Source: Vulcanimicrobiales bacterium (lineage in GTDB: Bacteria > Vulcanimicrobiota > Vulcanimicrobiia > Vulcanimicrobiales > Vulcanimicrobiaceae). From it: 64,000 nucleotides of DNA. The stretch covers positions 388,988-452,987 of the forward strand of contig JBBRLI010000001.1 in NCBI GenBank assembly GCA_038231455.1, in the 5' to 3' direction. Each line of letters begins with the position of its first letter. Within the stretch, counting starts at the first letter, position 1. Of the stretch, positions 9,163 to 59,229 are shown piece by piece. The notes under the pieces were generated by a model, which did not search any database, was not told where the DNA came from, and saw only the letters and a list, made by a program, of their open reading frames with translations. Made by a program: the position numbers and the translations under genes.

Positions 9163-9204
9163 GGCCGTCGATTTGCCGATGCCGCCGGGCGATTCCCCTT
9201 ACTT

Positions 9205-9747
9205 CTAAATACCGGCACCATCAGAAAAGAGCGGCGGTTCGGCCGCGACGCTCGCGACGAACGCCATCCGCTCCAAGATCGCGATCCAGGCAGCGTCCGG
9301 AACGTGGTCGCGCAGGCGACGCGCGGGTCGCGAGGTCCGCAGCGCGTCTTGCGGCTGCATGCGGAAGCCGTAACGCCGGTTGGCCATCATTTTCTCAAAT
9401 GCCGGGCTGCCGTACTCGATCAGCCCCACCTCACGCGGCAATTCCCAGCGTTGCACGATGCCAGCCGCACACACGATGCTAAAATGCGTGCAGTACGCAA
9501 GATATTTTTCCCATTTGGAATCGCGCAGAAAATCAGCGCGCGAGGCCTTGATCTCGTAGATCCGGACTTGGCGCGTGTAACGGCCAAGACCGATCACATC
9601 GAACCGGCAGCCGCTGCCGTTAGGCGAGAACTCCGTTGCAACGTACGGATAGCCAACATCGGACATCCGCTGGCTTGCGAGCAGCCGCAGCTCCGCCGTC
9701 GTCCGCTTTGCGCCGGCCGTGACCGTGAGCGGAATGTAGTCGATCAT
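9205..9747 (-). CDS. MmcB-family PD-(D/E)xK DNA repair protein
   Basis: RFDVIG...IYEIKASRADF.RD.KW..YL.YC...ELP.EVGLI pattern. ATG overlaps the upstream TGA (ATGA). Confidence 0.75.
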   Translation of the reverse strand: MIDYIPLTVTAGAKRTTAELRLLASQRMSDVGYPYVATEFSPNGSGCRFDVIGLGRYTRQVRIYEIKASRADFLRDSKWEKYLAYCTHFSIVCAAGIVQRWELPREVGLIEYGSPAFEKMMANRRYGFRMQPQDALRTSRPARRLRDHVPDAAWIAILERMAFVASVAAEPPLFSDGAGI

Positions 9748-30675: not shown

Positions 30676-31755
30676 ATGAAACGCATTGCATTCGCCTCCA
30701 TCGCTCTTGCTGCAGCGACCGTCATTGCAGCTCCCTCCATCGCATCTGCCGCGCCGCTCGAACGATCCAAAGTCGTTTTACCCTCGGCACTCAGTGTCGA
30801 TCTTGCGGCCAACACCGTCACCGTCAAACTCCATCGCGGGACGGCAAACGGCGCAACCGTTTGGTATACCATTACCGACATCTCCGATGCCGCCGCGGCG
30901 CAGCGCGAAGGCGCGATTTTTTCCGCAGCGCTCGCCGAAATCGGCGATGCCCAGGATGTTCAAGGCGACCCGACGTCATTCAAATTCAGCGGGACCGTCG
31001 ACTTCTCACCGAAACGCGTGCTCGAATCTTCCGCCGATGGGAATGTCACTGGAGCCCAGCCGGGTAGCGTCGGAAGCAGCACCTATTCCCCGTTCGTGCG
31101 CGTTGCCGGAACGAAAACGATCTACAACGCACCGATCGTTGCAAGCGGCGAACATCCGCACGACGTCACGACGCACACCGACACGCTCGATCGCATCGTT
31201 GCGATCGATACCAAAGACGCAGCAAACGCGCATGCGACGCTCGTTCTCGCCCGCGGATTTACGGCCGGAAAACCGATCGCCTACATCTCGACGGACGCAT
31301 CGGATGCGGGCGCCGCAGCGATCGAACGTTGCACCTACGCGCCGCGACTTGCCAAGGCATCGAACGCCGCACGCGTGCCGATCTTCGTCTTCTTCAGCGG
31401 CAAAAACGATGCCGACGGTCAAGGCGTAGCCTTCGCCGCGATCCACGGACACCTCGGTACCGATGCGACGCAAGCGAATGCCGCGACACTTGGCTCTCCG
31501 CTGAATATCCAATCGACATTCCCCGGAAGCGCGACGGAAGAAACCGGCTACACGCCACTCTGGAATGTCGAAGCCGGCGTCTGGACATCGACGGCAAGTA
31601 AAGACGGCAAAGCGCGCGTGCTCCGTTCACCCGAAGCCGTGACTGCCGAAGTTCGTTCGGGCTCCGTTACGGGACCCGGCGGCAAGCCGTTCGGAACCGT
31701 TGGCATCGCGGTCAACTGCCCCGTGGTCGCGTACGTTGCAGATCGCCCGCGCTAA
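30676..31755 (+). CDS. Hypothetical secreted protein with internal two-fold repeat (YSPF/YTPLW)
   Basis: Sec signal, repeated Y..TD.SD and Y(S/T)P motifs, C-terminal VNCP. Confidence 0.7.
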
Positions 31756-33778
31756 AGGCCGGATCGGCACGCGCATCGCGCTTGCCTTTTCGATCACGTT
31801 GGGTCTTGCGAGCGCAGCGATGGTCGTTGCTTTCGTGGCCCTAGGACTCATCGACCAAAGTGCGATCGCTCTTAGCGATCTCGTTGCGGCAACGCAAACG
31901 ATCGACGATGCGCAATTGCGCTTGGTCGAAGCAGAGTCGGCGGCACGCTCGTATGTCGATACGGGAGATCCGCGCGAACGCAAGGTCACAAATGATGCCG
32001 TCACCCAGGCGCGATCCGACTTTTCCGCCGTACTCGCGCTTCCGGGACTGCCCGCAGAACTCACGGCGGCCATCCACGACGTGCAACCGCGCGCCGACGC
32101 TGCGCTCACCTTTTACGCAAGCCAAGTCGCACTCGTCGACGCGGGAAAAAAGAACGACGCGATCGATCATCTTTCCGACGGGAAGGCGTTCGCGGATGAG
32201 TTGCGTCTCAAATTTGCCGCGGTTGCGACGACGACGCGCAGCGTGATCGATTCGAAGCGTGCGCAATCGCAACGCACGCTGACGGTCTCGGTATTCGTTC
32301 TGCTCGCCGCCGGGTTGCTCGCGATCGGCATCGGAATTCTCGTCGCGCGCCGCATAAGTTCCGACATCGCACGACGCCTGCAACGTGTCGACACCGCAAT
32401 CCGTGACGCCGTCGACGGCGAGATCGCCCGGTTTGCCGAAGCATTCGGCCGGCTCGCCGAGGGCGACCTTACGGCCGCCGTCGCAACATCGGCGCGGCCG
32501 ATCGGGCCGCTTGGCTCCGATGAAATCGGCTCGCTTGCCGCGAGTTACGACGCGCTCGGCACCGGCCTTGAGCGCATGGTCGCCGGCTACGCTGTGACGA
32601 CGACGCGACTCGGCGAAACGCTCGCCCATGTCGCAGCGACGGGACGCGAAATTACCACGTCCTCCGGCGACCTTGCCGTCGCATCGACCGCAACCCGTCA
32701 AGCCGCGCACGAAATCGCCGAGGCGATGCGCTACCTTGCAGAAGGCGCGCGCGAACAAACGGATATCGCCGGTCGGATTGAGAGTGCGACGCATCAACTG
32801 CAAGACATCTCGGCCTCGATCGCCTCCGGTGCACGCGAGCAAGAAAGCGAAGTGAGCGCCGTGCTCGTCGCCGTGCGTGAAACGCAAGGGGAGATCACGA
32901 CGGTCTCGCGTGTGAGCGCCGAACTCGCCGAAACGGCACGCACGGCAAACGGCGCCGCGCTCGAAGGTCGGGAGAAAGTCGAGCGGTCACGCGAAGCGCT
33001 CGACCGACTCTCAATCTCAACGGGAGCCGTGCAACGCACGATCGCAGAACTAGCGGAACGGTCGGCCGCGATCGAATCGATCGTCGAAACGATCGAAGAC
33101 ATCGGCGCGCGCACGAACCTGCTCGCGCTCAATGCCGCAATCGAAGCCGCCCGCGCGGGCGAGCACGGCCGCGGATTCGCGGTCGTCGCCGATGAGGTCG
33201 GGAAGCTCGCCGTCAGTTCGCAGGCATCGGCCCGCGAAGTCGCGCAGATTCTCTCCGGAATCCGCACGAACACCTTGCACGCAACCCAAGTGATGGGTGT
33301 CTCAGCTGCGGAGATTGCAACCGGCGTGGAACTCGCAAAGGCAAGTGCGGCGGCGTTCGACACCTTCGAGCGCACCGCCGGGATCGCCGACCGCACCGCA
33401 GGCGCACTCGATGCGCGTTCCGCCGCGATCCGGAGTTCGATCGAGTCGCTCGCCGCGCACATGGATGGATTCTCGGTCGTCGCCGAGGCGAACGGCGAGG
33501 CGGCCGTTTCGCTTAAGAGCGCCCTCACCGACCTCGCCGCCATCGTCACGGCGATCGCCCGCGGCACGGCAAACCAGCAAGTCATCTCCGAAGAGGTGGC
33601 GGCTTCCGGTGCAGCCCTCGGCGATCAGACCGCCACGGTTCAAAAAGCGGCGGACTCGCTCTACATGAATGCTGAAAAACTTGCCGCTCTCGTTGGGCGG
33701 TTCCGCACGGACACCGAGGTGCGAGCCATCGACGCTGAGCCGAACGATGTTCGAGCCTTACGAGCGGTCGCGAGTTAG
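31736..33778 (+). CDS. Methyl-accepting chemotaxis protein (CHASE3-like sensor, HAMP)
   Basis: Two TM helices, DEIGSL HAMP motif, [29 protein letters not shown]. Start uncertain. Confidence 0.9.
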
Positions 33779-47255: not shown

Positions 47256-48476
47256 GTGGCCCAAGCCAAACGGATCTTCGATCCGATCCACCACTTCATC
47301 GAACTCGATCCGGGTGAGAGCGAACTGCTCGGTGCACCGGCGCTGCAGCGATTGCGGCGGCTGCGTCAGCTCGGGCTTGCGTATTTGGCCTATCCCTCGG
47401 CCGAGCACTCGCGCTTCTCACATGCGCTCGGAGCACTCGCGGTGGGAACGCGCGCGCTCGATGCGATCTACCGCAATTCGCCGGACGCCTTCGAGGACGT
47501 GCACGATTTTGAAGCACAACGGCGGCTCCTGCGCGCGGCGCTCCTCTTACACGACATCGGCCACGGGCCGTTCAGCCACGCGTGCGAGTCTGTCCTCGGC
47601 GTCCGCCACGAGTTACGCACGGAGCAAATTCTTGCGCTGCCCGAAATCGCGGAGCGGCTCGATGCGCTGAGTCTCGACCGGCGCGACGTGGTAAATCTCA
47701 TCGTTGGCGGAGGCGGCGACGATCGCTATCCGATCCTGCGAGAACTGGTGCGAGGGCCCAACCTCGACGCCGATCGCATGGATTATCTCTTGCGCGATTC
47801 GTATTTCACGGGCGTTTCGAACGGCAGCTACGACGTCGAGCAGTTGATCGTCTCGCTGCGCGCGTACGACGTGAATGGGAAGCGCGAACTCGGCGTCGAC
47901 GGCCGCGGCGTCGTTGCGCTCGAATCATTCGTGCTGGCGCGCTACATGATGTTCGCCGTCGTCTATTTCCACCACACGACCCGCATGTTCGAGCGCGTGC
48001 TGCAAGACTGGCTGCGCGAACTGTGGCCCGATCCGCGCCGCCTCGATGACATCGGCGAGTTCTTGGAGTGGGATGACTTTCGCGTCGTCGATTCGATTCG
48101 CGGAGCCGCATCGGATGCAGCGCGCGCGCTGCGCGACCGGCGCACGCTCTACGGCTTGGCCTCGGAATTCAACGCTGAGAGCGACCTGCTCACGTTCGAT
48201 GCCTGTAACCATGCGCTGCGCGAGCGCTACGGCGATGCGGTGTGGAGCGACTCGCAGGAGCAGTTGCTGCACCGCTTGCCCCTGGGCGCCGACAACGACG
48301 ATCCCACCGTCTACGTCGGACTGACCGGACGCATCGTGGATGCGCGTGAGGCCTCCGATTTGATTCGACGGCTCAGCGGCAAAGCGTACTGGCGCAAACT
48401 CTTCGTCGACAAGCGCGTCGCGCGCACGGATGATGCGCGTGCGATCTGCCGGGAAATTATCGGCCGAGCGCTGTAA
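47256..48476 (+). CDS. HD-domain phosphohydrolase (SAMHD1/dNTPase-like)
   Basis: QRLRRLRQLG, HSRFSH, LLHDIGHGPFSH, DADRMDYLLRD and VYFH motifs. Confidence 0.88.
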   Translation: MAQAKRIFDPIHHFIELDPGESELLGAPALQRLRRLRQLGLAYLAYPSAEHSRFSHALGALAVGTRALDAIYRNSPDAFEDVHDFEAQRRLLRAALLLHDIGHGPFSHACESVLGVRHELRTEQILALPEIAERLDALSLDRRDVVNLIVGGGGDDRYPILRELVRGPNLDADRMDYLLRDSYFTGVSNGSYDVEQLIVSLRAYDVNGKRELGVDGRGVVALESFVLARYMMFAVVYFHHTTRMFERVLQDWLRELWPDPRRLDDIGEFLEWDDFRVVDSIRGAASDAARALRDRRTLYGLASEFNAESDLLTFDACNHALRERYGDAVWSDSQEQLLHRLPLGADNDDPTVYVGLTGRIVDAREASDLIRRLSGKAYWRKLFVDKRVARTDDARAICREIIGRAL

Positions 48477-48486
48477 CCTTTGCCTC

Positions 48487-50985
48487 ATGCGTGCTTTGAT
48501 GCGACCGTTCGCTTTGCTTGTGCTCGTGGCGCTCGGCGCAGGGAGCGCCTCGGCCCAGACCGAGCCAAATCGTAAACCGCGGCCGTATGGACGCGGTAAA
48601 GCAACGCTCCATCGCACGGTCGCGCCACCGTATCACATCACCAACGAATCGATTGCCCTGGCGTTCGACTTCGATGCGGGATCGATCCAGGCAACGACGA
48701 TCATCGACGTTCAGCCGAAGAATGCAAACCTAGCTACGCTTCCATTCGATTCGGTCGGCCTGAAGTACACGTTCGTCGCCGTGAACGGCACGGCCGTCCG
48801 CTATACGACCGATGCCGAGCATTTGTACGTGACCCTCCCGACGCCGGTCGATACAACAAAACCAATCCAAATTACGACGCAATACGTCGCCAAGCCGACG
48901 CGGGGCATCTATTTCGTCCGTCCCAACGCCGCCTATCCGAATCGTCAGCCGCAAATCTGGACGCAGGGCGAAGAAGAAGACAACCGGCGCTGGTTCCCCA
49001 CGTGGGATGAACCCAACGAAAAATTTACCACGACCTTGAGCGCGCTCGTGCCGGCCGACTGGACGGTGATTTCCAATGGCACGCTCGAGAACACGATTAA
49101 GTCGCCGGATGAAAAGCTGATGACGTACATCTGGCGTGAGGCGCGACCGCACAGTGCGTATCTCACCTCGTTTGTCGCAGGCCCGTACGTTAAAACCCAC
49201 GATACACTCGGATCGCTCGACGTCGACTACTACACCTCGGCCAAAGACGAGCCGCTTGCAAAGCAGTGCTTCGGCCGCACGCCCGAAATGATCGCGTTCT
49301 TTCAAGACATCACGAAAACCGCATACCCCTGGGAAAAGTACGCGCAGACGACCGTCTCGGAATTCACCGCGGGCGGTATGGAGAACGTCTCTGCAACGAC
49401 GCAGACGCAGTTTGCCATTCATCCGCCCGAATACGAATTGACCAACTCCTGCGACAGCTTGGTCTCGCACGAACTTGCCCACCAGTGGTTCGGCGATGAC
49501 GTCACCGCCATCGATTGGCCGAACATCTGGATCAACGAGGGCTTCGCGACCTACTTTCAGGAGCTTTGGAGCGAGCACCACTTCGGCAAAGACCGCTTCG
49601 ACTACGAGCGCAAACATGCGCAGGACGCGTATTTCGGCGAGACCAAACGCTACTGGCGCCCGATTGTGGAATACACGTATGGAATCGCACATGATGCGTT
49701 CGATTCATCGGGCTATCCCCGTCCGGGGCAAGTGCTCAACATGTTGCGCTACGTGCTCGGGGATGAAGCATTCTTCAAGGCGATCCATGACTATCTCGTC
49801 GAGCGTCAGTATACGAACGTGGATACGCGGCAGTTCGAAGCCTCGGTCGAGAAATCGAGCAAGACCGATCTGAAGTGGTTCTTCGATGAGTGGTTCTACA
49901 AGGCAAGCTATCCGGAATACACCGTCACGCAGAAGTACGATGCACAAGCAAAACGCCTGACACTCGGCGTGAGCCAAAACAACCACGCCGGAGTCGTCTT
50001 CCGCATGCCGGTGACGATTGAGGCATACGATGAAAGCGGCGCCGTCATCGGCAGCAAATCGGTGACGATCGACCGGACAAGCGAAACGGTGGAGGTCGAC
50101 AATCTCCCGACAAAGCCGGCGCTCGTCCTCATCGACCCGCGCCAGCGCATCATTCGCAAACTCACGATGAATAAAACGCTTGCAGAACTCGCGTGGCAGG
50201 CCACCAAGGCGGCAAGCGTGCCGGATCGCCTGTGGGCAATCGAGCGGCTCGGCGAACATATTGGGACCGATCGCGCGGCGGCGCGCACCGCGGTACGCGC
50301 GGCGCTCGGCGATCCATTCTACGGTGTGCGCGTCGATGCGCTCGATGCCGCAGCCGTACTCGATGACGCAGACGCCCTGCGGACCGCGCTCGGCGACGCC
50401 GATCCGCGCGTGAAGATCGCCGCCGCCGATGCGGTTACGAAACTCAAAAACAAGCCTGCCGCGCTCGCCGAGTCGCTGAGTTTGCTAGCAGACAATTCGA
50501 ACGGGGTGGTCGCCGGTGCGGCGCTCCGCGGACTCGGCAGCGTCGGCGGCGCGGCAGTGTACGCGCGCCTGATCGCTGCGCTCGATACACCTGCGCCAAG
50601 CGACGCCGTCGCCGTCGGCGCCGCGAGTGGCCTTGCGGATTTGGGTGACGCTCGCGCGATCGACGCGCTCAAAGCGCACGCCGCATACGGTCAGCCAGAA
50701 CGCTTACGTGCCGCGGCGATCGCGGCGCTCGGCAAACTCGGCAAGAAAAATCCAACCCTCGTCGTGCCCACGCTCCTGGCACTCGCTCAAAGCGATCCGT
50801 ATTTCCGCGCGCGCAGCACGGCGGTCTCTGCGCTCGGAAAACTGGGACAGCGTGCGACGCTCGAACCGCTCGGCAAAATCCAATCGAGCGACACCGAAAT
50901 AAGCGTCGCCAACGCCGCATACGACGCCATTTCGGACATCAACGATGCCCTGGCGGCAAAACCCGCAGCACGACCCTCGCCCTAG
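48487..50985 (+). CDS. Secreted M1 family aminopeptidase with HEAT repeats
   Basis: Sec signal (ASA-Q), GGMEN, HELAHQW...INEGFATY and HEAT repeats. Confidence 0.88.
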   Translation: MRALMRPFALLVLVALGAGSASAQTEPNRKPRPYGRGKATLHRTVAPPYHITNESIALAFDFDAGSIQATTIIDVQPKNANLATLPFDSVGLKYTFVAVNGTAVRYTTDAEHLYVTLPTPVDTTKPIQITTQYVAKPTRGIYFVRPNAAYPNRQPQIWTQGEEEDNRRWFPTWDEPNEKFTTTLSALVPADWTVISNGTLENTIKSPDEKLMTYIWREARPHSAYLTSFVAGPYVKTHDTLGSLDVDYYTSAKDEPLAKQCFGRTPEMIAFFQDITKTAYPWEKYAQTTVSEFTAGGMENVSATTQTQFAIHPPEYELTNSCDSLVSHELAHQWFGDDVTAIDWPNIWINEGFATYFQELWSEHHFGKDRFDYERKHAQDAYFGETKRYWRPIVEYTYGIAHDAFDSSGYPRPGQVLNMLRYVLGDEAFFKAIHDYLVERQYTNVDTRQFEASVEKSSKTDLKWFFDEWFYKASYPEYTVTQKYDAQAKRLTLGVSQNNHAGVVFRMPVTIEAYDESGAVIGSKSVTIDRTSETVEVDNLPTKPALVLIDPRQRIIRKLTMNKTLAELAWQATKAASVPDRLWAIERLGEHIGTDRAAARTAVRAALGDPFYGVRVDALDAAAVLDDADALRTALGDADPRVKIAAADAVTKLKNKPAALAESLSLLADNSNGVVAGAALRGLGSVGGAAVYARLIAALDTPAPSDAVAVGAASGLADLGDARAIDALKAHAAYGQPERLRAAAIAALGKLGKKNPTLVVPTLLALAQSDPYFRARSTAVSALGKLGQRATLEPLGKIQSSDTEISVANAAYDAISDINDALAAKPAARPSP

Positions 50986-51026: not shown

Positions 51027-52079
51027 ATGATTAGGAAAACCTTACTGATCGGTACGCTCGCGCTTTCCGCCGTCGCCTTTTCGAGCGCTCCCGCCTCGGC
51101 AATCCCCGTCTTCGCCCACCGCTACGGCCTCTCGTGCCAAGTGTGTCACACGACGGTGCCCCACTTGAACGCGCTCGGGGAAGAATTTTTGGCCGGGGGA
51201 TACGCGCTGCCTGGCGCAAAGCCCGGCCCGGTTTTTCCCTTGGCGATAAAAGTGAACCTCGCCTATTCAAGCGAGCCGACGGGCTCGTCACTTCCCAAAG
51301 CCGTCGTCGACGAAGTCGAGCTGCTCACCGGCGGCCACGTCGGTAAAGCGGGCAGTTACTTTGCCGAAGTCTATGCGATCGACGGCGGTCACATCGGTGC
51401 GGTACGCGACGCCTGGTACGCGCAGCGCTTCGGTCAAGTCGAAGCGACCGGCGGACAATTCACCTTACCGCTTCCGGTCGATCCGGAGACGTTTCGCGAG
51501 ACCGGCGCGCACTACGCGATCTACGATCAGCGGGTCGGCACGAACCCGTTTAATTTTTTCGACCCAAAACAGGGTCTGAGCGTCCGCTTTGGTGGCGTGC
51601 AGAGCGGCATCTCCGTCTCTGCGCTCGGCGGTCACGACAAACAGTCGGGCCTCGCCTCACACGGAATCGATCGCATGATCGCCGCGCAAACCGCGCGCGG
51701 CGCATTTTCCGCGAGCGCCTATCGATACGATGGAGCGCGCACGCTTGCGGCCGGCACCGATCGCTTCTGGCGTGAGGGTGTCGGTGTGGGCTTTACCGCA
51801 GCACGCTTGCGCGTCGAGGCGACCCTCCAAACCGGCAACGATGCGGGCTTGGGGATCCGTTCGAGCGGCGGTTTCGTCCAGGCGCGCTTCGCGTTCACAC
51901 CCGCGCTTGCAGCGATCGTCCGGTACGACGGCACGCAAGATACGCAGTTCGCGCGCACGCTGCTGGTCGGCGCGAGTCACCGCGTGAGCCGCAATGCCCG
52001 GTTCACGATCGAAGACCTTATCGCGCACGTGCCGCAAACCAAGCACACGCTCGATGCAGCATATCTGTTCGCGTACTAA
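51027..52079 (+). CDS. Cyc2-like monoheme cytochrome c-porin fusion (copy A)
   Basis: Signal peptide, then IPVFAHRYGLSCQVCHTTVPHLN..G..F...GY, amphipathic beta strands and aromatic C-terminus YLFAY. Confidence 0.75.
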   Translation: MIRKTLLIGTLALSAVAFSSAPASAIPVFAHRYGLSCQVCHTTVPHLNALGEEFLAGGYALPGAKPGPVFPLAIKVNLAYSSEPTGSSLPKAVVDEVELLTGGHVGKAGSYFAEVYAIDGGHIGAVRDAWYAQRFGQVEATGGQFTLPLPVDPETFRETGAHYAIYDQRVGTNPFNFFDPKQGLSVRFGGVQSGISVSALGGHDKQSGLASHGIDRMIAAQTARGAFSASAYRYDGARTLAAGTDRFWREGVGVGFTAARLRVEATLQTGNDAGLGIRSSGGFVQARFAFTPALAAIVRYDGTQDTQFARTLLVGASHRVSRNARFTIEDLIAHVPQTKHTLDAAYLFAY

Positions 52080-53731
52080 CGCAACCCGATGCCGAGCGTC
52101 GTCACGCGCACACCGGCTTGCATTGACGAGCCCAGCGTCGCAGCGTACGCGCCAAAAGGGAGGCGAATATCGCCTTCGAGCGGACCGCCGCGCGCGAGCA
52201 GGTCGACGCGGAGCGCCTCACCTGCAGTGAACCACACGACTTGACGGTGAGCGTTTTGCGGCGCGAGCGACAATCGCGGATACGCAGCATCGCTCGAGGT
52301 TGCGGTCGCCAGCGTCCATGCGCGCACGGCGAGCGCCGGCGCGATCTGCCACGTCCCGTCGATGCCAATTCCGCTGAGATGACGCCCCGCTGAACTTGCG
52401 ATTCGTTCGCTATACGCAACCGCTCCCACGCGCAAGCGCGCGTTGTCCGTGTAGGTTGCACGCGTCTGAATCAGCACGCTGCGATCTCCGAGGATCGCGC
52501 TCTCCGATTCAAGTAACGTCGGCGTCCGTAGGGCCGTGAGCACGCCGCCCTGCACGCTGAACCGTTCTCCGATCCGAACTTCTTCGCTGGCGCTTGCGGT
52601 CAAAGCCGATCCGATTGTCGATCCAAATGCGAGCGCGTTGCTGCCCCGTTCGTAGGCAATCGCAACGCGCGTCTCGGTCGCGACTCCGTGTGACTCGGCG
52701 CCAAGGGAAAGCGCCTGCGTGGACTGCGTCCCCGTGCTTCCGTCCGGCAAGATCCCCGTCGAACGTGTGGCGCGGACGGACAATTCGACCGGAATCATCC
52801 CGCGCGAACGCAGCGAAGCCGCGCCGTCCACAAGCGAGTTATCGACACTCGAGCGCACCGCAAGATGACTCAAAAGAAGCGTCCGACGTGAAGCCGTCGC
52901 ATAGCCGAGCATCGCGCCCTCGAGCGATCGAGTTGCATCTCCAAGCGCGAGCGCGCGCGCACTGAGCATTCCACCCGCAAAGGGGACGTCCGCTGCGACG
53001 ATGCCGTTGCTCCGATGATCGCCCGTGTCACTCGCCGCTGCGAACGTCGCGTGAAACGCGCGTGCACCAATGCGTGCTTCGAGGTCGGATGCATCTCCGC
53101 CGTCGATGCGCGCGCTCGGCGAACCGATCGCGCGAACGGCAAAGAGGCCACCCTGTGCGTAGGTTCCATAGCGCGGTGCCTCGAGGGGCGAGAGCGCGAG
53201 GATATCAGCTAGTGCGAATGGGACGATCGATTCGGACGCACTCGCACCGTCGGTCGATCGATAGAGCGGGATGCCCTCGAGCACGAGGGCACCGTGGCCG
53301 CGATCGAGTCCGCGATCCGAAATCTCGCTTCCATTCGCGACGACGTACGGTACGAGCGTCGCGATCTGCAAGAGACGCCGGTACGGCAGCGCAGCGAGGT
53401 CGGCGGGCGCGAGCGGCGCGTCTCGTAGAACGGCATACCGCCGTACCAGGATGACGATCGTCTCATCTGCTCGGGCGATCGCGCGCGTTGTCACGCAGTA
53501 CGCGCAACTAACTTCAAGCACGGTCGGCTCGCCATCGGTATCGAGAGCGAACGTACCATCGGGCGCGGCGCGATCCGACCCGATCGTGCGGCCCGCCGCA
53601 TCGATCGCCCGCACGCGCGCTTGAGCGATCGCGGCGCCGTCGGTATCGCGAACGATGCCGGTCCGCAGCGTCCCGGCTTCCGCAGCGAGCGGAACGAAGG
53701 CGAGGAGCACGAGGATGAGCGTCGCCTTCAC
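52076..53731 (-). CDS. Secreted carboxypeptidase-regulatory-like domain plus short TonB-dependent-receptor-like barrel
   Basis: Signal peptide, GIVRDTDGAAIAQARV, plug-like DRGL...LVLEGIP...RYG and a beta-rich remainder. Confidence 0.55.
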   Translation of the reverse strand: MKATLILVLLAFVPLAAEAGTLRTGIVRDTDGAAIAQARVRAIDAAGRTIGSDRAAPDGTFALDTDGEPTVLEVSCAYCVTTRAIARADETIVILVRRYAVLRDAPLAPADLAALPYRRLLQIATLVPYVVANGSEISDRGLDRGHGALVLEGIPLYRSTDGASASESIVPFALADILALSPLEAPRYGTYAQGGLFAVRAIGSPSARIDGGDASDLEARIGARAFHATFAAASDTGDHRSNGIVAADVPFAGGMLSARALALGDATRSLEGAMLGYATASRRTLLLSHLAVRSSVDNSLVDGAASLRSRGMIPVELSVRATRSTGILPDGSTGTQSTQALSLGAESHGVATETRVAIAYERGSNALAFGSTIGSALTASASEEVRIGERFSVQGGVLTALRTPTLLESESAILGDRSVLIQTRATYTDNARLRVGAVAYSERIASSAGRHLSGIGIDGTWQIAPALAVRAWTLATATSSDAAYPRLSLAPQNAHRQVVWFTAGEALRVDLLARGGPLEGDIRLPFGAYAATLGSSMQAGVRVTTLGIGLR

Positions 53732-53765
53732 GTTCGCTTCACGATTCGATGGTACGATTGCACGG

Positions 53766-54017
53766 ATGGGACGCTTACGGAGTCGATGGACGATCCTCCT
53801 GACGCTGCTGGCGACGCTTGCGGCGGCCGGCGGCATCGGCATCGCAGCGGAAGTCAGCCTCGAAGAACTCAGCCGACCGCACCTTGCCCCGAGTTCCGAG
53901 GCCGGCCTGCTCGCTCCCATCACCGGCGCCGGCCGAACCGGCTGGGACTGTACGCCGGAAAAAGCCGCGCGGGCAACCACCGCGCGGGCAGCCGAGCTTC
54001 CCGCGAGCGACCGCTAA
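53766..54017 (+). CDS. Small hypothetical exported/membrane protein
   Basis: TGnTACGAT -10 element 7 nt before ATG, N-terminal hydrophobic helix, stop abuts the next ATG. Confidence 0.45.
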   Translation: MGRLRSRWTILLTLLATLAAAGGIGIAAEVSLEELSRPHLAPSSEAGLLAPITGAGRTGWDCTPEKAARATTARAAELPASDR

Positions 54018-54821
54018 ATGCGCGTTGCCGCCGCTTGCGTTGCGGCGCTTCTGGCCGCACTCCCGGCAACGTCCTTCGCACAGACGTATAGCGCGCCGAC
54101 CGAGGCGCCACGCACGACCGATCGCAAAACGCTCGGTGCGCTCGCGGCCGAACGCGAGATTCACGAACGCTTCGCGCGCGGAATCGCGGCGGAGGCACGC
54201 GCCGCCTGGTCCGATGCCGTCGCGGAGTTCACGCGCATCATCGCACTCGATCCGCCCGAGCCGCGCGGTTCCACCGCACGCTACGATCTGGCAATCGCCA
54301 AAGCCCGCCTCGGCGACTTTCGCGCTGCGCGAACGCTGTTGACCGAGGCCCTGTCTCGCGATCCCGGCTTTACGGCCGCGGCTGCGAACCTCGTCACGGT
54401 CAACGTGATGGCAGGCGATTTGCGCGAAGCGCGGTTGAGCGCGGATCGATTCATCGCGCTTGCACCCGCGTCCGCTCGCGCGCGATACGCACGCGGGTTG
54501 CTCGCACTGCGCACGGGCGACCTCGCAACGGCACGGGCCGACTTCCGCGTTCTCATCGCCGACGATCCCGCGTATGCCATCGCGCACTACGATCTCGCGC
54601 TCGTCGAGCTGCGCGAAGGGCGTCTGGATGCCGCCGAACTCGAACTCACGCGGGCGCTTACGCTTGCGCCCGGATACGCGCGCGCACGCTTCGCCTTAGG
54701 AACGGTGCTCGTGCGCGCAGGACGAACGGTTGAAGCCCGCGCCGCGTTCGATCGAGTTGCTGCCGATGCATCCGACATCACGTTGCGCACGATTGCGGGA
54801 ACGCTGCGCGACCGGCTATGA
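54018..54821 (+). CDS. Secreted tetratricopeptide repeat protein
   Basis: Signal peptide (SFA-Q) and repeated A.YDLA / DP.YA.A TPR units. Confidence 0.85.
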   Translation: MRVAAACVAALLAALPATSFAQTYSAPTEAPRTTDRKTLGALAAEREIHERFARGIAAEARAAWSDAVAEFTRIIALDPPEPRGSTARYDLAIAKARLGDFRAARTLLTEALSRDPGFTAAAANLVTVNVMAGDLREARLSADRFIALAPASARARYARGLLALRTGDLATARADFRVLIADDPAYAIAHYDLALVELREGRLDAAELELTRALTLAPGYARARFALGTVLVRAGRTVEARAAFDRVAADASDITLRTIAGTLRDRL

Positions 54822-55355
54822 GGTCGCGCGTAGCCATGCGCGCACGTCGGCTTCGGCGTGGTCGGAGAGCAGCACGGTTTTCGCGAGGCGCCCTGCACGA
54901 TCCAAGCAGTAGATCATCGTGCTGTGAACCTGCGGTGCTTCTTTCGTCGTGACGTGCGGGCGGTCGACTCCGAGCGAGTCGAGCAATGCGTTCACACGCG
55001 CGGGCGAGCCGCTCGCGACGCGCCACGAGCGCGCGTCGGCGTTCAGCATGCGCGCGTACTGGGCCATCACGAATGGCGTATCGTAGCCCGGATCCAGCGT
55101 GATCGTGACCAAGCGCGCACGGACGTGCGTCTGAACGAGATGTTCGAAGAGCGCGTCGCTCATCGGGCATGTATCGCCGCAGCGCGAAGCGACGAACGTC
55201 AGGATCGTCGGCCTACCGCGAAGAGCGTGAAGCGAGAAGTGCGCACCGCCTTGATCGACAAGTTCGATACGTGTGGGGTCGGATGCCGCGCCCGCATTGC
55301 CGCCGGTCGTAAGACCCAGCAGCAGTGCGAGCGCGGCGATTCCCGCGCGAAGCAC
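54816..55355 (-). CDS. SCO1/SenC family copper chaperone
   Basis: LVDQGG..FS, CGDTC (CxxxC), ITLDP..DTP and HST motifs. GTG overlaps the upstream TAG. Confidence 0.88.
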   Translation of the reverse strand: MLRAGIAALALLLGLTTGGNAGAASDPTRIELVDQGGAHFSLHALRGRPTILTFVASRCGDTCPMSDALFEHLVQTHVRARLVTITLDPGYDTPFVMAQYARMLNADARSWRVASGSPARVNALLDSLGVDRPHVTTKEAPQVHSTMIYCLDRAGRLAKTVLLSDHAEADVRAWLRATS

Positions 55356-55969
55356 TAGTAGTTGCCGCCGCCTTGACCGGGTGGGGTACTTGTGGATCCG
55401 GGCGCGGGGGTTGCACTCGGTCCGGGCGTTGCATTCGCGGCAACGTTGAGGACGGTGCGCATGGCATTCGAGGCGTAGTGGAACGCGCAACCGATGTAAT
55501 ACGTCCCCGTCGAAAGCGTGAACGGGCCGGCGAGCGCGCCGCCGGAAAGTGTCCCGGATGCAAAGGTTGCGTTGATCGTTGCGCTACCGCTACTCGTCGT
55601 CGAGATACTGGGGCTTGTGGGAAAGCTGGTCGTCGAGATCACGTTGAACGTGTGCGGCACGGATAATTGTCCGTTGCGGATCATCACCTGGGATCCGGGC
55701 GCGAATCCGAGCGTTTGCGAGTACGCATTTTGCGTGTAGCCGCCGATAAGTCCGTAGGTTGGATCGGTCGTGGCGCCGATTGCCGTCGTTGGCAACGCGG
55801 CTGTGATGACTTGCTGGCTCGACGCCGGTGGCGTCGCGGTCGGCGCAACCGTCGGAGTTGCCGTCACGGTTGGCGGCGTGACGGAGCTGCCACCGCTGCT
55901 GCCGCCACCGCCGCATGCAGCCAAGAGTGCCGCGGCTACGAAGCACGCAGCGAATACGGGTTTGTTCAT
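55355..55969 (-). CDS. Cupredoxin (type-1 blue copper) lipoprotein
   Basis: Lipobox LAAC, Gly/Ser/Pro/Thr linker, PHTF and GTYYIGCAFH....AM. Confidence 0.8.
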   Translation of the reverse strand: MNKPVFAACFVAAALLAACGGGGSSGGSSVTPPTVTATPTVAPTATPPASSQQVITAALPTTAIGATTDPTYGLIGGYTQNAYSQTLGFAPGSQVMIRNGQLSVPHTFNVISTTSFPTSPSISTTSSGSATINATFASGTLSGGALAGPFTLSTGTYYIGCAFHYASNAMRTVLNVAANATPGPSATPAPGSTSTPPGQGGGNY

Positions 55970-56020
55970 TAGTCGTCGCTTTCTGGCAAAATGAAGTGAC
56001 TGCCGCGAGCGTAGAACCTC

Positions 56021-56075
56021 GTTCTGAAGCATTCATGAAGCGCACGCCGGTCCGCATTCAGAATCGCTTCACAAT
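56021..56075. promoter_or_regulatory. Two oppositely oriented TTCA-N7-TTCA direct-repeat boxes in a divergent promoter
   Basis: Minus strand: cttca-tgaatg-cttca (56040-56025). Plus strand: attca-gaatcg-cttca (56056-56071). Confidence 0.45.
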
Positions 56076-56094
56076 TCAAGGCTAGCGTTACGGG

Positions 56095-56550
56095 ATGAGA
56101 GCACTGCTCGTCCTTGTCACGATCGCGCTTGCGGGCTGCACCTACGGTGCGCCAAGTGCGTCTGGCAGCGGCTCCGACGCCGGTGTCACGACGATCGACG
56201 TTAGCTTGACCGCGCATGCGGCAAGCGCGATCGGCGCCGGGAGCTCCGGCGGCTACGCGCCTGCCGTCCTGACGATCGCCGCTGGGAGTCGCGTGCAATT
56301 CCTCAATGCCGACTCATTCGCGCATACCGCATCGCTTGTTTCAAACGCCCAAAAGTTTCCGACGAGTTCGCCGCTGGGTGCAAGCGCACTGACCGCAGCG
56401 GGGACGACACTCTCGAGCGGATGGTCGAGCGGCAATCTTACCGCAGGAGCGCGTTCTCCGGTGTTGCTCGCCGATACGCCCGGAACGTATCTCTACGGCT
56501 GCTTCTATCACTATGGCGCGCCGATGCGGGGAGCGATCGTTGTTCGGTAA
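56095..56550 (+). CDS. Cupredoxin (plastocyanin-like) lipoprotein
   Basis: Lipobox LAGC, NADSFAHT and PGTYLYGCFYHYGAPMRG (Cx2Hx4M). Confidence 0.85.
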   Translation: MRALLVLVTIALAGCTYGAPSASGSGSDAGVTTIDVSLTAHAASAIGAGSSGGYAPAVLTIAAGSRVQFLNADSFAHTASLVSNAQKFPTSSPLGASALTAAGTTLSSGWSSGNLTAGARSPVLLADTPGTYLYGCFYHYGAPMRGAIVVR

Positions 56551-57658
56551 ACGCGCCCTCGCGGCGCTCGTCGTGTTCTTCGCCGCAGCGAGTTTGCGCG
56601 CCGATGCGATGCCGATCTTCGCGCAGCGCTACGCGATGACGTGCGGCGCGTGTCATTCGGTCTTGCCCGAACTCAACACGTTCGGGAATTATTTCCGGAA
56701 TCACGGTTATCGGCTACCCGCACCAAAACACGGCACGACGATCGCCGCGATCCGCTATCAGATGGAATACGACCGCGATCCGCAAGCAAACGCGCCGCGG
56801 TACGTCCCGGGTGGCGTGCTGCTCTCCAATGCCGACATCGGCGCGATCTCGGGCTTTCTTCATTACAACATCGGCGCGCAAGGCGGCCCTTCGGGAACCT
56901 ACCTTGGCTATCTTACCCGCTACGACGCAGCGACGAAATCGCAGTATCGCGTTGGTCTCTACGAGTTGCCACTCGTCCACTCGCCCGGCCAGCGCCTGGA
57001 CGATCTCGCACCGTACGGTTACGAACAGGCCCACGTCGGGCTCAACGATTTGACCCTCGCGCAGCCGCGCTGGGGTGTCGAAGGCGAACGAGAAATCGGC
57101 CCGACGCGCGTCGCGCTCTCGATTGCGTTCGCTGAATTCAAAGGCGCCGCATACGGCGGGCGCCCGATCGATACGGGGATCACGACGCGTCCCCAACACC
57201 CGGAAGTAGGCGTTTTCGTCCGCGCGCCATTTGGCTCGTCGATCACGCTTACGGCCGACGCGCTCGCCGGTGCCAGGGCTACTGCACCGGCGGGCCGTTC
57301 CTCGTTCACCGATGCGTATTCGCGCGATGCTTTGGGCATCGAGGCGCACGCGCACCGGTTGAGTCTGCTCGCTCAGCAATGGTGGGGCGTCGACACCAAT
57401 AGCGACGGGTTTGGTACCCGAGCCGGTTCGAGCGGCGGTTTCACCCGATTGCGTTACGCACTTGGCGATCACGCGTATCTTGGCGTGCGCTTCGATGCGA
57501 CCGCCGCGCCGACGGCCGTGCGCGATACCGTGGTCTACGCGGCGACACACCTCGGGCGCCACGTCCGTCTGTTGATCGAAAACCGGCGGATTCAAAACGG
57601 CCGTTCGAGCGTTGAGGGGGCGCTGACGGTCGGCGTGCCATGGCCGGCGAACCACTGA
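56540..57658 (+). CDS. Cyc2-like monoheme cytochrome c-porin fusion (copy B)
   Basis: TTG start with GGGGAG RBS, signal peptide, MPIFAQRYAMTCGACHSVLPELNTFGNYFRNHGY and a beta-barrel-like remainder. Confidence 0.75.
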   Translation: MFGKRALAALVVFFAAASLRADAMPIFAQRYAMTCGACHSVLPELNTFGNYFRNHGYRLPAPKHGTTIAAIRYQMEYDRDPQANAPRYVPGGVLLSNADIGAISGFLHYNIGAQGGPSGTYLGYLTRYDAATKSQYRVGLYELPLVHSPGQRLDDLAPYGYEQAHVGLNDLTLAQPRWGVEGEREIGPTRVALSIAFAEFKGAAYGGRPIDTGITTRPQHPEVGVFVRAPFGSSITLTADALAGARATAPAGRSSFTDAYSRDALGIEAHAHRLSLLAQQWWGVDTNSDGFGTRAGSSGGFTRLRYALGDHAYLGVRFDATAAPTAVRDTVVYAATHLGRHVRLLIENRRIQNGRSSVEGALTVGVPWPANH

Positions 57659-57661
57659 TTC

Positions 57662-58330
57662 GTGCGCATTCTCCTGATCGAGGATAATCCGGATATCGCC
57701 GCGGCGGTTCGGACGATGCTCGAACGCCGGAAATTCTCTGTCGATGTTGCCACCGACGGTGACCGAGGACTCGACGCACTCTTGGATGCAAGCTACGATG
57801 CCGCCGTCGTCGATCTGGTCCTCCCCGGGCGCGACGGCTTCTCGATCTGCCGCGCCGCGCGAAGCGAGGGTATTCAGACGCCCGTGCTGATCCTCACCGC
57901 ACGCGATGCCGTCGAAGATCGCGTGCGCGGCTTGGATGCGGGCGCCGACGACTACCTTGTCAAACCGTTCGTCGAGGAAGAGCTCGCTGCGCGCCTGCGT
58001 GCGCTCTTACGCCGCGGTCGGATGCCGGTGCATGCGACGATCGTGCGCGGCGATCTCATCGTCGATCAAGGCGGACGCGTTGCAACCTACAAAAGTAAAA
58101 CGATCGAACTTGGCGCGACGGAATTTCGCGTGCTGGAATATTTAGCAATTAACGCGGACCTCGCGCTCACACGCCAGCAAATTCTGGATTCGGTGTGGGG
58201 TGAATCGTTCGATGGCGAAAGTAACATCGTGGATGTCTACATCAGCGCGATTCGGCGCAAACTCGATGCGCTTGGCGCGCACGGTCGCATCACGACCGTA
58301 CGCGGCGTCGGCTATAAATTAACCGGGTAG
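57662..58330 (+). CDS. OmpR-family response regulator
   Basis: ILLIED, DLVLPG, GADDYLVKPF, SNIVDVYI and TVRGVGY motifs. Confidence 0.94.
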   Translation: MRILLIEDNPDIAAAVRTMLERRKFSVDVATDGDRGLDALLDASYDAAVVDLVLPGRDGFSICRAARSEGIQTPVLILTARDAVEDRVRGLDAGADDYLVKPFVEEELAARLRALLRRGRMPVHATIVRGDLIVDQGGRVATYKSKTIELGATEFRVLEYLAINADLALTRQQILDSVWGESFDGESNIVDVYISAIRRKLDALGAHGRITTVRGVGYKLTG

Positions 58331-59229
58331 TCCTTCGCCTCACCGCCTCCTATCTCGGGATTTTTCTTGCGGTGCTCACCGCGCTGAGCGTCGGCGCGTA
58401 CGTGTACCTCGCAAATATCGCGCGCGAAACGGTCGAACCGCTCTTGCAATTGTCGATCGGTCAAGATGTCTTGCGTGCGACGACGAGCCATGTCGCGTTC
58501 ACGATTCTCTTGGCCGACATCCCGCTCGTCCTCGTGGTCGGTGTGGCGGCGTACGTGATGGCGACGGTCTCCGTTCGACCGCTGGCCGCGGCCCGGGAGC
58601 GCGAAGAACGCTTTACGGCTGAAGCCGCCCACGAACTGCGCACGCCGCTTGCGACCATCGCCTCGGTCGCGCAAGCGGCGCAAGGCGGGGCGGACCAAGA
58701 CGTTGCGCTCGCCAAGATCGCTCGCACCGCGATCGAGGCATCGACCCTTGTGGGTGACTTACTCCTATTGATGCGCGAATCGCCCGAAGGCACGCGATTG
58801 CACGAGCCGGTCGATTTGAACGCCATCGCGGGCTTTGCGGCAGCCGATGCGCGTACGCTCCACCCGGAACTCGAAGTGACGCATGCGGTGGGGATGAACG
58901 GCGCCTACGTCATCGGTGATGTGGGAGCACTCCGGCGTCTGGCGATCAATCTTGTTGCGAACGCCGTCGAACATGCGCGCTCGATCGTCGAAATCGAGGT
59001 CAAACGCGAAGGCGAGAACGTGATGCTCGCAGTTTCGGACGATGGCCCGGGTGTGGCGGATGCGGACCGCGAGCGTATCTTCGATCGATTCGTGAAAGCG
59101 AATCCGGCGGCGGGCGGCGCCGGCCTCGGCCTTGCGATTTGTCGCAAGATCGCGTCCACGCACGGGGGAACGATCGTGCTGGAAGATCGGGCGCGCTTCA
59201 TCGCCCGATTTCCAGCGGCACCAATCTAA
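58318..59229 (+). CDS. Sensor histidine kinase (two TM helices, short periplasmic loop)
   Basis: AAHELRTPL, NLVANA, DDGPG, FDRF and GAGLGL motifs. Start uncertain (ATT 58318 or GTG 58372). Confidence 0.88.
   Translation: MNRVVLRLTASYLGIFLAVLTALSVGAYVYLANIARETVEPLLQLSIGQDVLRATTSHVAFTILLADIPLVLVVGVAAYVMATVSVRPLAAAREREERFTAEAAHELRTPLATIASVAQAAQGGADQDVALAKIARTAIEASTLVGDLLLLMRESPEGTRLHEPVDLNAIAGFAAADARTLHPELEVTHAVGMNGAYVIGDVGALRRLAINLVANAVEHARSIVEIEVKREGENVMLAVSDDGPGVADADRERIFDRFVKANPAAGGAGLGLAICRKIASTHGGTIVLEDRARFIARFPAAPI

Follow-up and report, generated by a model that had tools for sequence, protein, structure and literature searches.

We analysed a stretch of 64,000 nucleotides (nt) from assembly GCA_038231455.1 of a Vulcanimicrobiales bacterium (contig JBBRLI010000001.1), hereafter called the window, and concentrated on a gene cluster that occupies positions 51027-59229 of it. 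The cluster encodes two secreted proteins, named here CycP1 and CycP2, that resemble the fused cytochrome-porin Cyc2, and beside them two lipoprotein cupredoxins (CupA and CupB), a copper chaperone of the Sco type, a secreted TPR protein, a TonB-dependent-receptor-like (TonB-like) protein and a two-component system made up of an OmpR-family response regulator and a histidine kinase (Table 1). An earlier interpretation drawn from the letters alone (the sequence-only reading) had proposed that these genes form a module for extracellular electron transfer or for copper; every gene that it listed between 51027 and 59229 was present, and its assignments of the TPR protein, the OmpR-type regulator and the kinase held. 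The remainder of the window is ordinary chromosome that includes dnaG, rpoD and transporters. As judged from related genomes, the core of the cluster is an operon conserved across Eremiobacterota, to which CycP2, and not CycP1, belongs.

This view rests on a scan of one genome per species, which gave 243 pattern matches and 215 stretches encoding a CycP2 relative. Linkage was counted in the best 80 related loci of these 215 stretches by tblastn (E < 1e-5, at least half of the query covered), each denominator being the number of loci with enough flanking DNA. CupB was detected in 78 of 79 loci. Sco occurred in 72 of 77, in 68 of them on the strand of CycP2, and the kinase in 65 of 69. The TPR protein (67 of 70) and the regulator (70 of 75) shared the strand of CycP2 wherever they occurred. 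CupA was found in 44 of 72 loci and the TonB-like protein, which is divergent from the operon, in 42 of 60; some of the misses of the latter may be detection failures, since its identity between loci is only about 27%. The usual arrangement places the TonB-like gene on one strand and the genes for the TPR protein, CupA, Sco, CupB, CycP2, regulator and kinase, in this order, on the other, and the order is retained while protein identity falls to about 50%. Because the grouping recurs in 80 related loci, it is not a product of chance. By contrast, only 7 of the 80 loci had a further Cyc-like gene at a distance of up to 10 kb from CycP2, and we therefore regard CycP1 as a paralog that merely happens to be nearby in the window genome and stands outside the module. 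The linked module proposed earlier thus survives for CycP2 with the cupredoxins, Sco and the two-component system, and loses CycP1; a working pair of CycP1 and CycP2 was rejected on the same count. At locus L003 the gene directly after CycP2 is again Cyc-like and shares 50% identity with CycP1.

The module is not uniform. L003 and two further loci (L002 and L019) contain CupB and CycP2 with no TPR protein, regulator or kinase detected. The Sco segment, which in the window comprises CupA and Sco (54816-56032), is inverted relative to most relatives, and Sco likewise lies on the opposite strand in L001, L002 and L023; no inverted repeats frame the CupA-Sco segment of the window. Beyond the module the flanks vary between loci and carry housekeeping genes. 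Most of the best 80 loci come from records of Eremiobacterota or Vulcanimicrobiota, some being titled only 'uncultured bacterium' or 'bacterium'. Four module contigs (L028, L031, L051 and L073), with CycP2 identities of 50-53%, are labelled Acidiferrales, Verrucomicrobiia or Acidoferrum, which is probably due to mis-binning and may reflect transfer.

CycP1 and CycP2 compared with Cyc2

In the available parts of Keffer et al. 2021, Cyc2 is described by a signal peptide, one CxxCH, an AXPXFAR[Q/K][T/Y] segment upstream of it, a PXL four residues past it and a 16-strand porin, and in the screen published there sequences without PXFAR[Q/K][T/Y] were discarded; the FeGenie rule for Cyc2, in the description accessible to us, asks for a length of at least 365 amino acids (aa). 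In a six-frame translation of the window we found exactly two occurrences of P.FA.RY...C..CH...P.L, at 51105-51167 and 56612-56674, and four occurrences of C..CH across all six frames. By reading of the sequence, both proteins open with a hydrophobic N-terminus typical of a signal peptide, ending in ASA before the Ile of CycP1 and in ADA before the Met of CycP2, directly ahead of the motif. Exactly one CxxCH is present in all 44 aligned members of the CycP2 family and in all 43 of the CycP1 family, and the PXL element reads PHL in CycP1 and PEL in CycP2. Across the joint alignment of the two families, which are 24-29% identical to each other, no variation occurs in the two cysteines and the histidine of CxxCH, the Pro and Leu of PxL and additional residues of the motif. 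Pfam and NCBIfam gave no family for either cytochrome-porin, with CycP2 scoring 21.1 bits against Cytochrom_C, just below the cutoff of 21.3.

CycP1 and CycP2 are homologous over their full length (28% identity across 334 aligned columns, E 2e-23). Homolog searches with the two proteins, each scoring 8000 candidates, gave 633 and 719 matches at E ≤ 0.001, nearly all annotated 'hypothetical protein'; the named ones belong to Candidatus Velthaea, Elarobacter, Baltobacteraceae, Vulcanimicrobiaceae and 'Eremiobacteraeota', with one labelled Candidatus Acidoferrum. The window genome is one of Eremiobacterota (Vulcanimicrobiota), close to Candidatus Velthaea. A joint profile of both families matched 4118 representatives at E ≤ 1e-3, of which 1582 remain at a threshold of 1e-10 and 87 at one of 1e-30. 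Among its best 150 matches, 94 hold the motif region and the other 56 are mostly fragments; the 58 motif-bearing proteins of at least 330 aa include 24 with FAR, 12 with FAH and 8 with FAQ, and the strict form FAR[QK][TY] occurs in 12 of the 58. The strict-motif proteins include some of 377-514 aa that match at E 1e-22 to 1e-38, partly aligned across most of the profile. When one of them (P0310) was used for a word-based search, 176 matches were obtained; the few named ones were 'hypothetical protein' entries from Acidobacteriota or Thermoanaerobaculia, and no link to a named iron-oxidiser Cyc2 was found among these matches. Look-alikes in the protein atlas were confined to unnamed clusters and a Porin_O_P lead on 20% of the members of one cluster.

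Structure prediction by AlphaFold2 gave 16 strands for both CycP1 (predicted local distance difference test score, pLDDT, 72.4; predicted template-modelling score, pTM, 0.70) and CycP2 (pLDDT 75.3, pTM 0.75). In Foldseek searches of the PDB the models matched 16-strand general porins such as OmpF, Omp32 and OprP; for CycP1 the matches reached an E of 6.3e-11 and a TM-score of 0.66 (Omp32) and included OprP 2o4v, and for CycP2 they reached an E of 2.6e-07. An OprP-type porin is also the type to which Cyc2 is matched in the accessible text of Keffer et al. Both cytochrome-porins are thus modelled with the 16-strand barrel expected of Cyc2. By sequence, the joint profile found nothing significant among solved structures (best E 0.099, a redoxin). 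The part of a 2026 review open to us likewise discusses the Cyc2 structure from predicted models only, with the heme at the periplasmic face. In the representative search two longer proteins, P0311 (652 aa) and P0319 (600 aa), carried cytochrome c domains (Cytochrome_CBB3, Cytochrom_C) past the barrel, so a carrier may be fused to the porin in other lineages.

Several observations count against calling these proteins Cyc2. Neither has the strict upstream motif, which reads AIPVFAHRY in CycP1 and AMPIFAQRY in CycP2: the Arg is replaced by His or Gln, respectively, and the [Q/K] by Arg, with A, P, F, A, Y and the spacing to CxxCH retained. Owing to this altered motif, the published screen would discard both proteins, and CycP1 (350 aa) also falls short of the 365-aa limit, which CycP2 passes with its 372 or 381 aa. 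The sequence-only reading had identified the segment as the motif that characterises Cyc2, and in the strict published form this was not borne out. In a tree made by a quick method from 56 rows, after removal of 85 rows because of their length and of 13 in which the motif was absent or came late, three groups appeared: CycP2 lies among FAQ proteins, CycP1 in a well-supported set of 17 FAH rows, and all 12 strict-motif proteins in a set of 32 rows, so that both window families lie outside the last of these. In addition, the short helical heme domains were modelled at a pLDDT below 50, as is expected of domains modelled without their heme.

On the other side, the profile built from both families reaches the strict-motif proteins by homology that extends beyond CxxCH, and on this ground, as far as profile and motif can tell, CycP1 and CycP2 are divergent members of the Cyc2 superfamily with the architecture of fused monoheme cytochrome-porins; in this respect the sequence-only reading was upheld. 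With Acidithiobacillus ferrooxidans Cyc2, Mariprofundus Cyc2PV-1 and Leptospirillum Cyt572 they share the signal peptide, the single N-terminal CxxCH, an A.P.FA..Y segment and PxL at equal spacing, a predicted 16-strand barrel resembling OprO/OprP-type porins and the profile-level homology to strict-motif proteins. They differ from these in the Gln or His in place of the motif Arg and the Arg in place of [Q/K], in their shorter length (350 and 372 aa versus mostly at least 400) and in forming clades apart from the strict-motif proteins in the quick tree.

CycP1-type genes have other neighbours elsewhere. In two loci a gene of CHASE3-HAMP-MCP architecture, that is, a chemoreceptor gene, overlaps the start of a CycP1-type gene (L024:13114-16205 and L016:7403-10074), and in a third (L035:12746-15868, minus strand) chemoreceptor and CycP1-type gene form one continuous open reading frame (ORF) of 1040 aa, a layout shared by the representatives P0248 and P0258 (1035 and 1043 aa). 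Since a true fusion is topologically unlikely, such ORFs probably represent overlapping genes in which a stop is missing or has been lost. The chemoreceptor-linked CycP1-type proteins form a supported subclade in the quick tree. The window has a CHASE3-MCP gene of its own at 31700-33778, 33% identical to that of L024 and not adjacent to CycP1. At L056:13231-16848, upstream of a CycP1-type gene, we observed a cupredoxin (Cupredoxin_1, E 1.8e-10), a metallophosphoesterase and an extracytoplasmic function (ECF) sigma factor.

Cupredoxins, Sco and the accessory proteins

CupB matched Pfam Copper-bind (PF00127) with 26.8 bits, above the cutoff of 21.2. Among 23 aligned sequences its lipobox Cys is conserved, His77 and Met144 are invariant and Cys136 and His139 are conserved to at least 90%. 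The closest solved relative is a plastocyanin (E 1.4e-05), in agreement with the NCBIfam and Pfam matches. CupA has no Pfam match and aligns to CupB at E 3e-08; it has a lipobox Cys followed by a long flexible tether, and of its ligands His106 and His164 are invariant and Cys161 and Met170 at least 90% conserved in 14 sequences. Both cupredoxins thus carry, by sequence comparison, the ligand set of a type-1 copper site. Two lipoprotein cupredoxins with a lipobox Cys and a His/Cys/His/Met set had been foreseen by the sequence-only reading and were found; its analogy with rusticyanin did not hold, the two proteins being plastocyanin-like and not rusticyanin-like.

The Sco protein, taken before as a CxxxC/His chaperone, was confirmed by family and motif: it matched PF02630 with 54.1 bits (cutoff 22.8) and contains CGDTC and a downstream His. 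Its relatives retain CxxxC, most often as CTDAC. A single lipoprotein ORF of about 350-365 aa takes the place of separate CupA and Sco genes in 8 of 14 aligned loci (L042, L052, L054, L059, L065, L076, L078 and L079, near positions 8000-9600 of each); in it a Pro/Gly-rich linker connects the cupredoxin to a Pfam-confirmed Sco domain. This fusion argues that Sco works on or with the cupredoxin.

Among the matches listed for the TPR protein, the CcmI/NrfG-like family was absent, and a dedicated role of that kind was set aside. The TonB-like protein, which the earlier interpretation had called TonB-receptor-like, fits this description in part. In the window protein itself only CarboxypepD_reg was matched, below the cutoff, with no Plug match at E ≤ 0.1 and no barrel family; in the aligned set of this protein and 18 orthologs, CarboxypepD_reg was found in 19 of 19 and Plug in 8 of 19, with a best Plug E of 3.2e-05. 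Just past CarboxypepD_reg, at residues 79-82, it has a CxxC that is invariant in the 19 aligned proteins and could be a metal site or a disulfide. A sequence search of solved structures gave no match for this protein.

The regulator scored best against RppA (206.3 bits, cutoff 250) and then against the CopR/CusR type (186.5 bits, cutoff 279.2), and the kinase against RppB (129.1 bits, cutoff 400) and then the CopR/CusR type (96.1 bits, cutoff 292.55). The two membrane helices of the kinase enclose a loop some 30 residues long in which no His, Cys or Met is conserved; HisKA and HATPase domains follow, with no HAMP match. Like the CopRS/CusRS family, the window has an OmpR-type regulator and a kinase beside a blue-copper protein, with best scores to metal-sensing pairs; unlike that family, its scores remain below the cutoffs, no periplasmic sensor domain is present and the loop has no conserved metal ligand. 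The pair thus falls short of a heavy-metal two-component system of the CopRS/CusRS/CzcRS or RppAB kind.

Possible functions of the module

The rus operon of Acidithiobacillus (cyc2-cyc1-cup-coxBACD-rus), in the descriptions accessible to us, encodes cyc2 with two copper proteins, and the window cluster is like it in placing an outer-membrane cytochrome-porin with two periplasmic, electron-carrying copper proteins. Unlike the rus operon, the window cluster has plastocyanin-like lipoproteins instead of rusticyanin, no Cyc1 (cytochrome c4) or aa3 oxidase in the window or in loci L052 and L005, and a Sco chaperone, a TPR protein and a two-component system inside the cluster. A partial precedent for an electron path is Slit_1812-1818 of Sideroxydans lithotrophicus ES-1, which by the available description is a cluster of cupredoxin, SCO1/SenC and cytochrome genes that is up on magnetite and rises in the course of solid Fe(II) oxidation; neither a fused cytochrome-porin nor a two-component system is described there, in contrast to the window.

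By analogy with such systems, the reading that we favour is that the module forms an electron path from the outer membrane to the cupredoxins, and we put its chances at about even or slightly below. A small redox-active solute, by analogy with Cyc2 most likely Fe2+, would enter the pore of CycP2 and donate an electron to its heme, from which the electron would pass to membrane-tethered CupB, perhaps also to CupA, and onward to acceptors of respiration or photosynthesis whose genes lie elsewhere in the genome; Sco would load or maintain the copper of the cupredoxins, and the co-transcribed two-component system would control expression. Architecture, homology, ligand sets and linkage are what the analysis shows, while we infer that heme is attached, which way the electrons flow, what the donor is and how the partners make contact; the narrower claim that Fe(II) is the donor, which is likewise drawn by analogy, we consider possible and on balance doubtful. 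The gene overlap of CupB and CycP2 and the regulator following CycP2 after 4 nt support the path, as do the Cyc2 features, the conserved linkage, the retained type-1 copper ligands and the CupA-Sco ORF. A single member of the phylum is in culture; according to the part of the literature available to us, its outer membrane is of the typical kind with lipopolysaccharide, and it possesses a cbb3 oxidase and a bc1 complex.

The prediction of a cytochrome-cupredoxin complex, which the sequence-only reading had suggested as a check, leans slightly the same way: CycP2 with CupB and heme scored 0.53, the best control reaching 0.22, and the three runs gave 0.53, 0.57 and 0.00, with a contact agreement of at least 0% and a partner pLDDT of at least 87. 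Of 157 solved complexes 116 reach the mark used for such scores, as do 2 of 215 mismatched pairs; those that reach it at 0.60 or below comprise only 18 of the 157 solved complexes and both passing mismatches.

The slightness of this result is one of several facts that weigh against an electron path, and the altered motif is another. No genes for cytochrome c4, an oxidase or cytochrome c maturation were found among the window ORFs of at least 170 aa or around the module in L052 and L005, loci of 21 kb each; maturation genes in particular had been named earlier as something to look for. The best matches of the regulator and kinase are to metal-sensing families, all below the cutoff, and the module is closely coupled to signalling proteins. 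Its occurrence in at least 215 stretches at one genome per species, many of them titled as metagenome-assembled genomes (MAGs) from peat or soil, is an odd breadth for lithotrophy. In the tailings proteome papers, as far as their text was available, we found no statement that an Eremiobacterota Cyc2 protein had been detected. Of the findings that the sequence-only reading had itself named as fatal to it, none emerged where computation could decide: a barrel is predicted, homology is present and linkage is conserved. Taken as a whole, its interpretation is partly supported.

The same coupling to signalling proteins is what a sensory role would explain. Here the cytochrome-porin and the tethered cupredoxin would act as an outer-membrane redox or metal antenna and not as an energy pathway, which we think unlikely; it is similarly improbable that the redox state of heme and copper, set by Fe(II) or another outside solute, is read by a kinase with almost no periplasmic domain, or that, for CycP1-type paralogs, it is read by the overlapping chemoreceptor. 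Regulator and kinase are nevertheless co-directional with CycP2 and immediately follow it in most loci, and kinases built like this one, with a short loop free of conserved ligands and no HAMP match, usually rely on accessory proteins. In Rhodobacter a Sco homolog (PrrC/SenC) is encoded with the redox-sensing kinase and regulator PrrBA/RegBA, as Sco is with the two-component system of the window module, which adds to the case for sensing; to our knowledge, the Rhodobacter PrrBCA (RegB-SenC-RegA) cluster has no cytochrome-porin or cupredoxin, unlike the window module, and the window kinase is of a two-helix and not of the multi-span RegB type (71.7 bits against ActS/PrrB/RegB, cutoff 350). SenC and PrrC are given as names of Sco-like chaperones in the accessible part of a review, and the Sideroxydans authors, in the text open to us, raise iron sensing as a possible role of Cyc2. 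The lack of an oxidase or soluble cytochrome gene in the window and in L052 and L005 speaks for sensing too, as do the chemoreceptor overlaps in L024 and L016 and the single ORF in L035 and two representatives. These chemoreceptors were, however, seen in 3 of the 7 loci with a second Cyc-like gene and in the 2 representatives, L034 and L067 lying outside the scan. Moreover, a two-component system beside its target genes is the ordinary layout for plain regulation as well, contact of the kinase with module proteins would have to be supposed, and two cupredoxins with a chaperone are a heavy investment for a sensor.

Three of the module genes encode copper proteins, and the module might instead acquire, buffer or detoxify copper, an explanation to which we give a low probability. 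Copper would be passed by the TonB-like protein or by the porin, the heme would interconvert Cu(II) and Cu(I), the metal would be bound and handed on by Sco and the cupredoxins, and the two-component system would respond to it; none of these parts seems likely to us. CinRS of Pseudomonas putida is a copper-responsive two-component system with a cupredoxin target, the copper-induced CinA, and with the copper receptor OprC it provides a precedent. The preference of the regulator and kinase for RppA/RppB and then for the CopR/CusR type, and the invariant CxxC of the TonB-like protein, point the same way. In the accessible literature Sco-type chaperones matter mainly at low copper according to a review, which also mentions CopI, and Eremiobacterota were very abundant in Cu/Ni tailings. 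However, all scores to metal families stay under the curated cutoffs given above, the kinase has neither a periplasmic sensor domain nor a conserved metal ligand in its loop, and no P-type ATPase, multicopper oxidase, CusCBA, CopC/D or PCuAC is encoded in the module. Electron carriers typically have complete type-1 sites of the form Cys-x2-His-x4/5-Met, CupB most resembles plastocyanins, and a conserved heme-porin has no known role in copper handling. That the genes have no joint function at all, being neighbours by descent only and the cytochrome-porins being diffusion porins with a vestigial N-terminal segment, would agree with barrel models that resemble general porins, with the poorly modelled heme domain and with the absence of linkage of CycP1 to the module in most relatives. 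We give this next to no credence: CxxCH and PxL residues are invariant across two families of such low identity, gene order is kept at about 50% protein identity, genes overlap and CupA and Sco are fused in some genomes.

The sequence-only reading had regarded the lineage as one not known for Fe(II) oxidation. The idea proved not to be new for the lineage, as two papers, in the parts available to us, already contain FeGenie-based predictions of Cyc2 or of iron oxidisers for Eremiobacterota MAGs; no 'Cyc2' text was found in the supplements of the two papers. A search of the full-text literature, from which subscription papers and preprint supplements were excluded, did not find the operon, the Sco fusion, the kinase or the chemoreceptor link described. 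The published automatic Cyc2 calls in Eremiobacterota most likely correspond to a divergent branch of the Cyc2 superfamily that sits in an operon of copper proteins, chaperone and regulator with no oxidase adjoining. Acidic soils, peat, tundra and mine wastes harbour Eremiobacterota in abundance. If Fe(II) is oxidised by the module, a widespread soil phylum would enter the iron cycle by a cupredoxin route so far known from acidophiles; if metal sensing or copper handling is its role, the use of Cyc2 as a marker gene of iron oxidation needs qualifying, and in the case of sensing, 'Cyc2' matches in this phylum, and perhaps in many bacteria that do not oxidise iron, would mark sensing or taxis and not lithotrophy. 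Under any of these readings the operon offers defined parts for testing, in a phylum with a cultured member.

Gene starts and surroundings of the cluster

The coordinates adopted for the genes are collected in Table 1. CycP2 probably starts at the TTG at 56540, which gives 372 aa as in its closest relatives and overlaps the final 11 nt of CupB; by its first start it would run from 56513 with 381 aa. The kinase probably starts at an ATT at 58318, directly after a stop and 13 nt before the stop of the regulator gene. The first common start, a GTG at 58372, would remove most of the first membrane helix that relatives have, and the frame upstream of it matches the longer N-termini of relatives that complete this helix, for which reason the earlier position is preferred. 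For the TonB-like protein, whose ORF extends to 53980, a start at 53740 (554 aa) is likely. Because the Sco ORF overlaps CupA, the true Sco start probably lies downstream of 55490.

Table 1. Genes of the cluster, with positions in the 64,000-nt window
Gene product	Positions	Strand	Features
CycP1	51027..52079	+	350 aa, secreted monoheme cytochrome with predicted 16-strand porin; AIPVFAHRY...CQVCH...PHL
TonB-dependent-receptor-like outer-membrane protein	52076..53740	-	N-terminal CarboxypepD_reg; invariant CxxC
Secreted TPR protein	54018..54821	+	TPR_16 (E 6.1e-25); opens the conserved co-directional block
Sco1/SenC copper chaperone or thiol-disulfide protein	54816..55490	-	PF02630; CGDTC and downstream His
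CupA, lipoprotein cupredoxin	55355..55969	-	Gly/Pro/Thr-rich tether; ORF to 56032
CupB, plastocyanin-like lipoprotein cupredoxin	56095..56550	+	Lipobox Cys15; Pfam Copper-bind
CycP2	56540..57658	+	Monoheme cytochrome with predicted 16-strand porin; AMPIFAQRY...CGACH...PEL; core of the module
OmpR-family response regulator	57662..58330	+	Starts 4 nt past the CycP2 stop
Histidine kinase	58318..59229	+	Two membrane helices, HisKA, HATPase

A promoter scan found no sites, and terminator-like sites were at chance level (9 versus 7.3 expected). The gene immediately upstream of CycP1, which lies outside the cluster, encodes an M1 aminopeptidase of 851 aa with HEAT repeats (48430-50985, plus strand) and stops 42 nt ahead of CycP1; it is one of two paralogs of M1 aminopeptidase with C-terminal HEAT repeats in the window, the other being at 6658-9162 on the minus strand.

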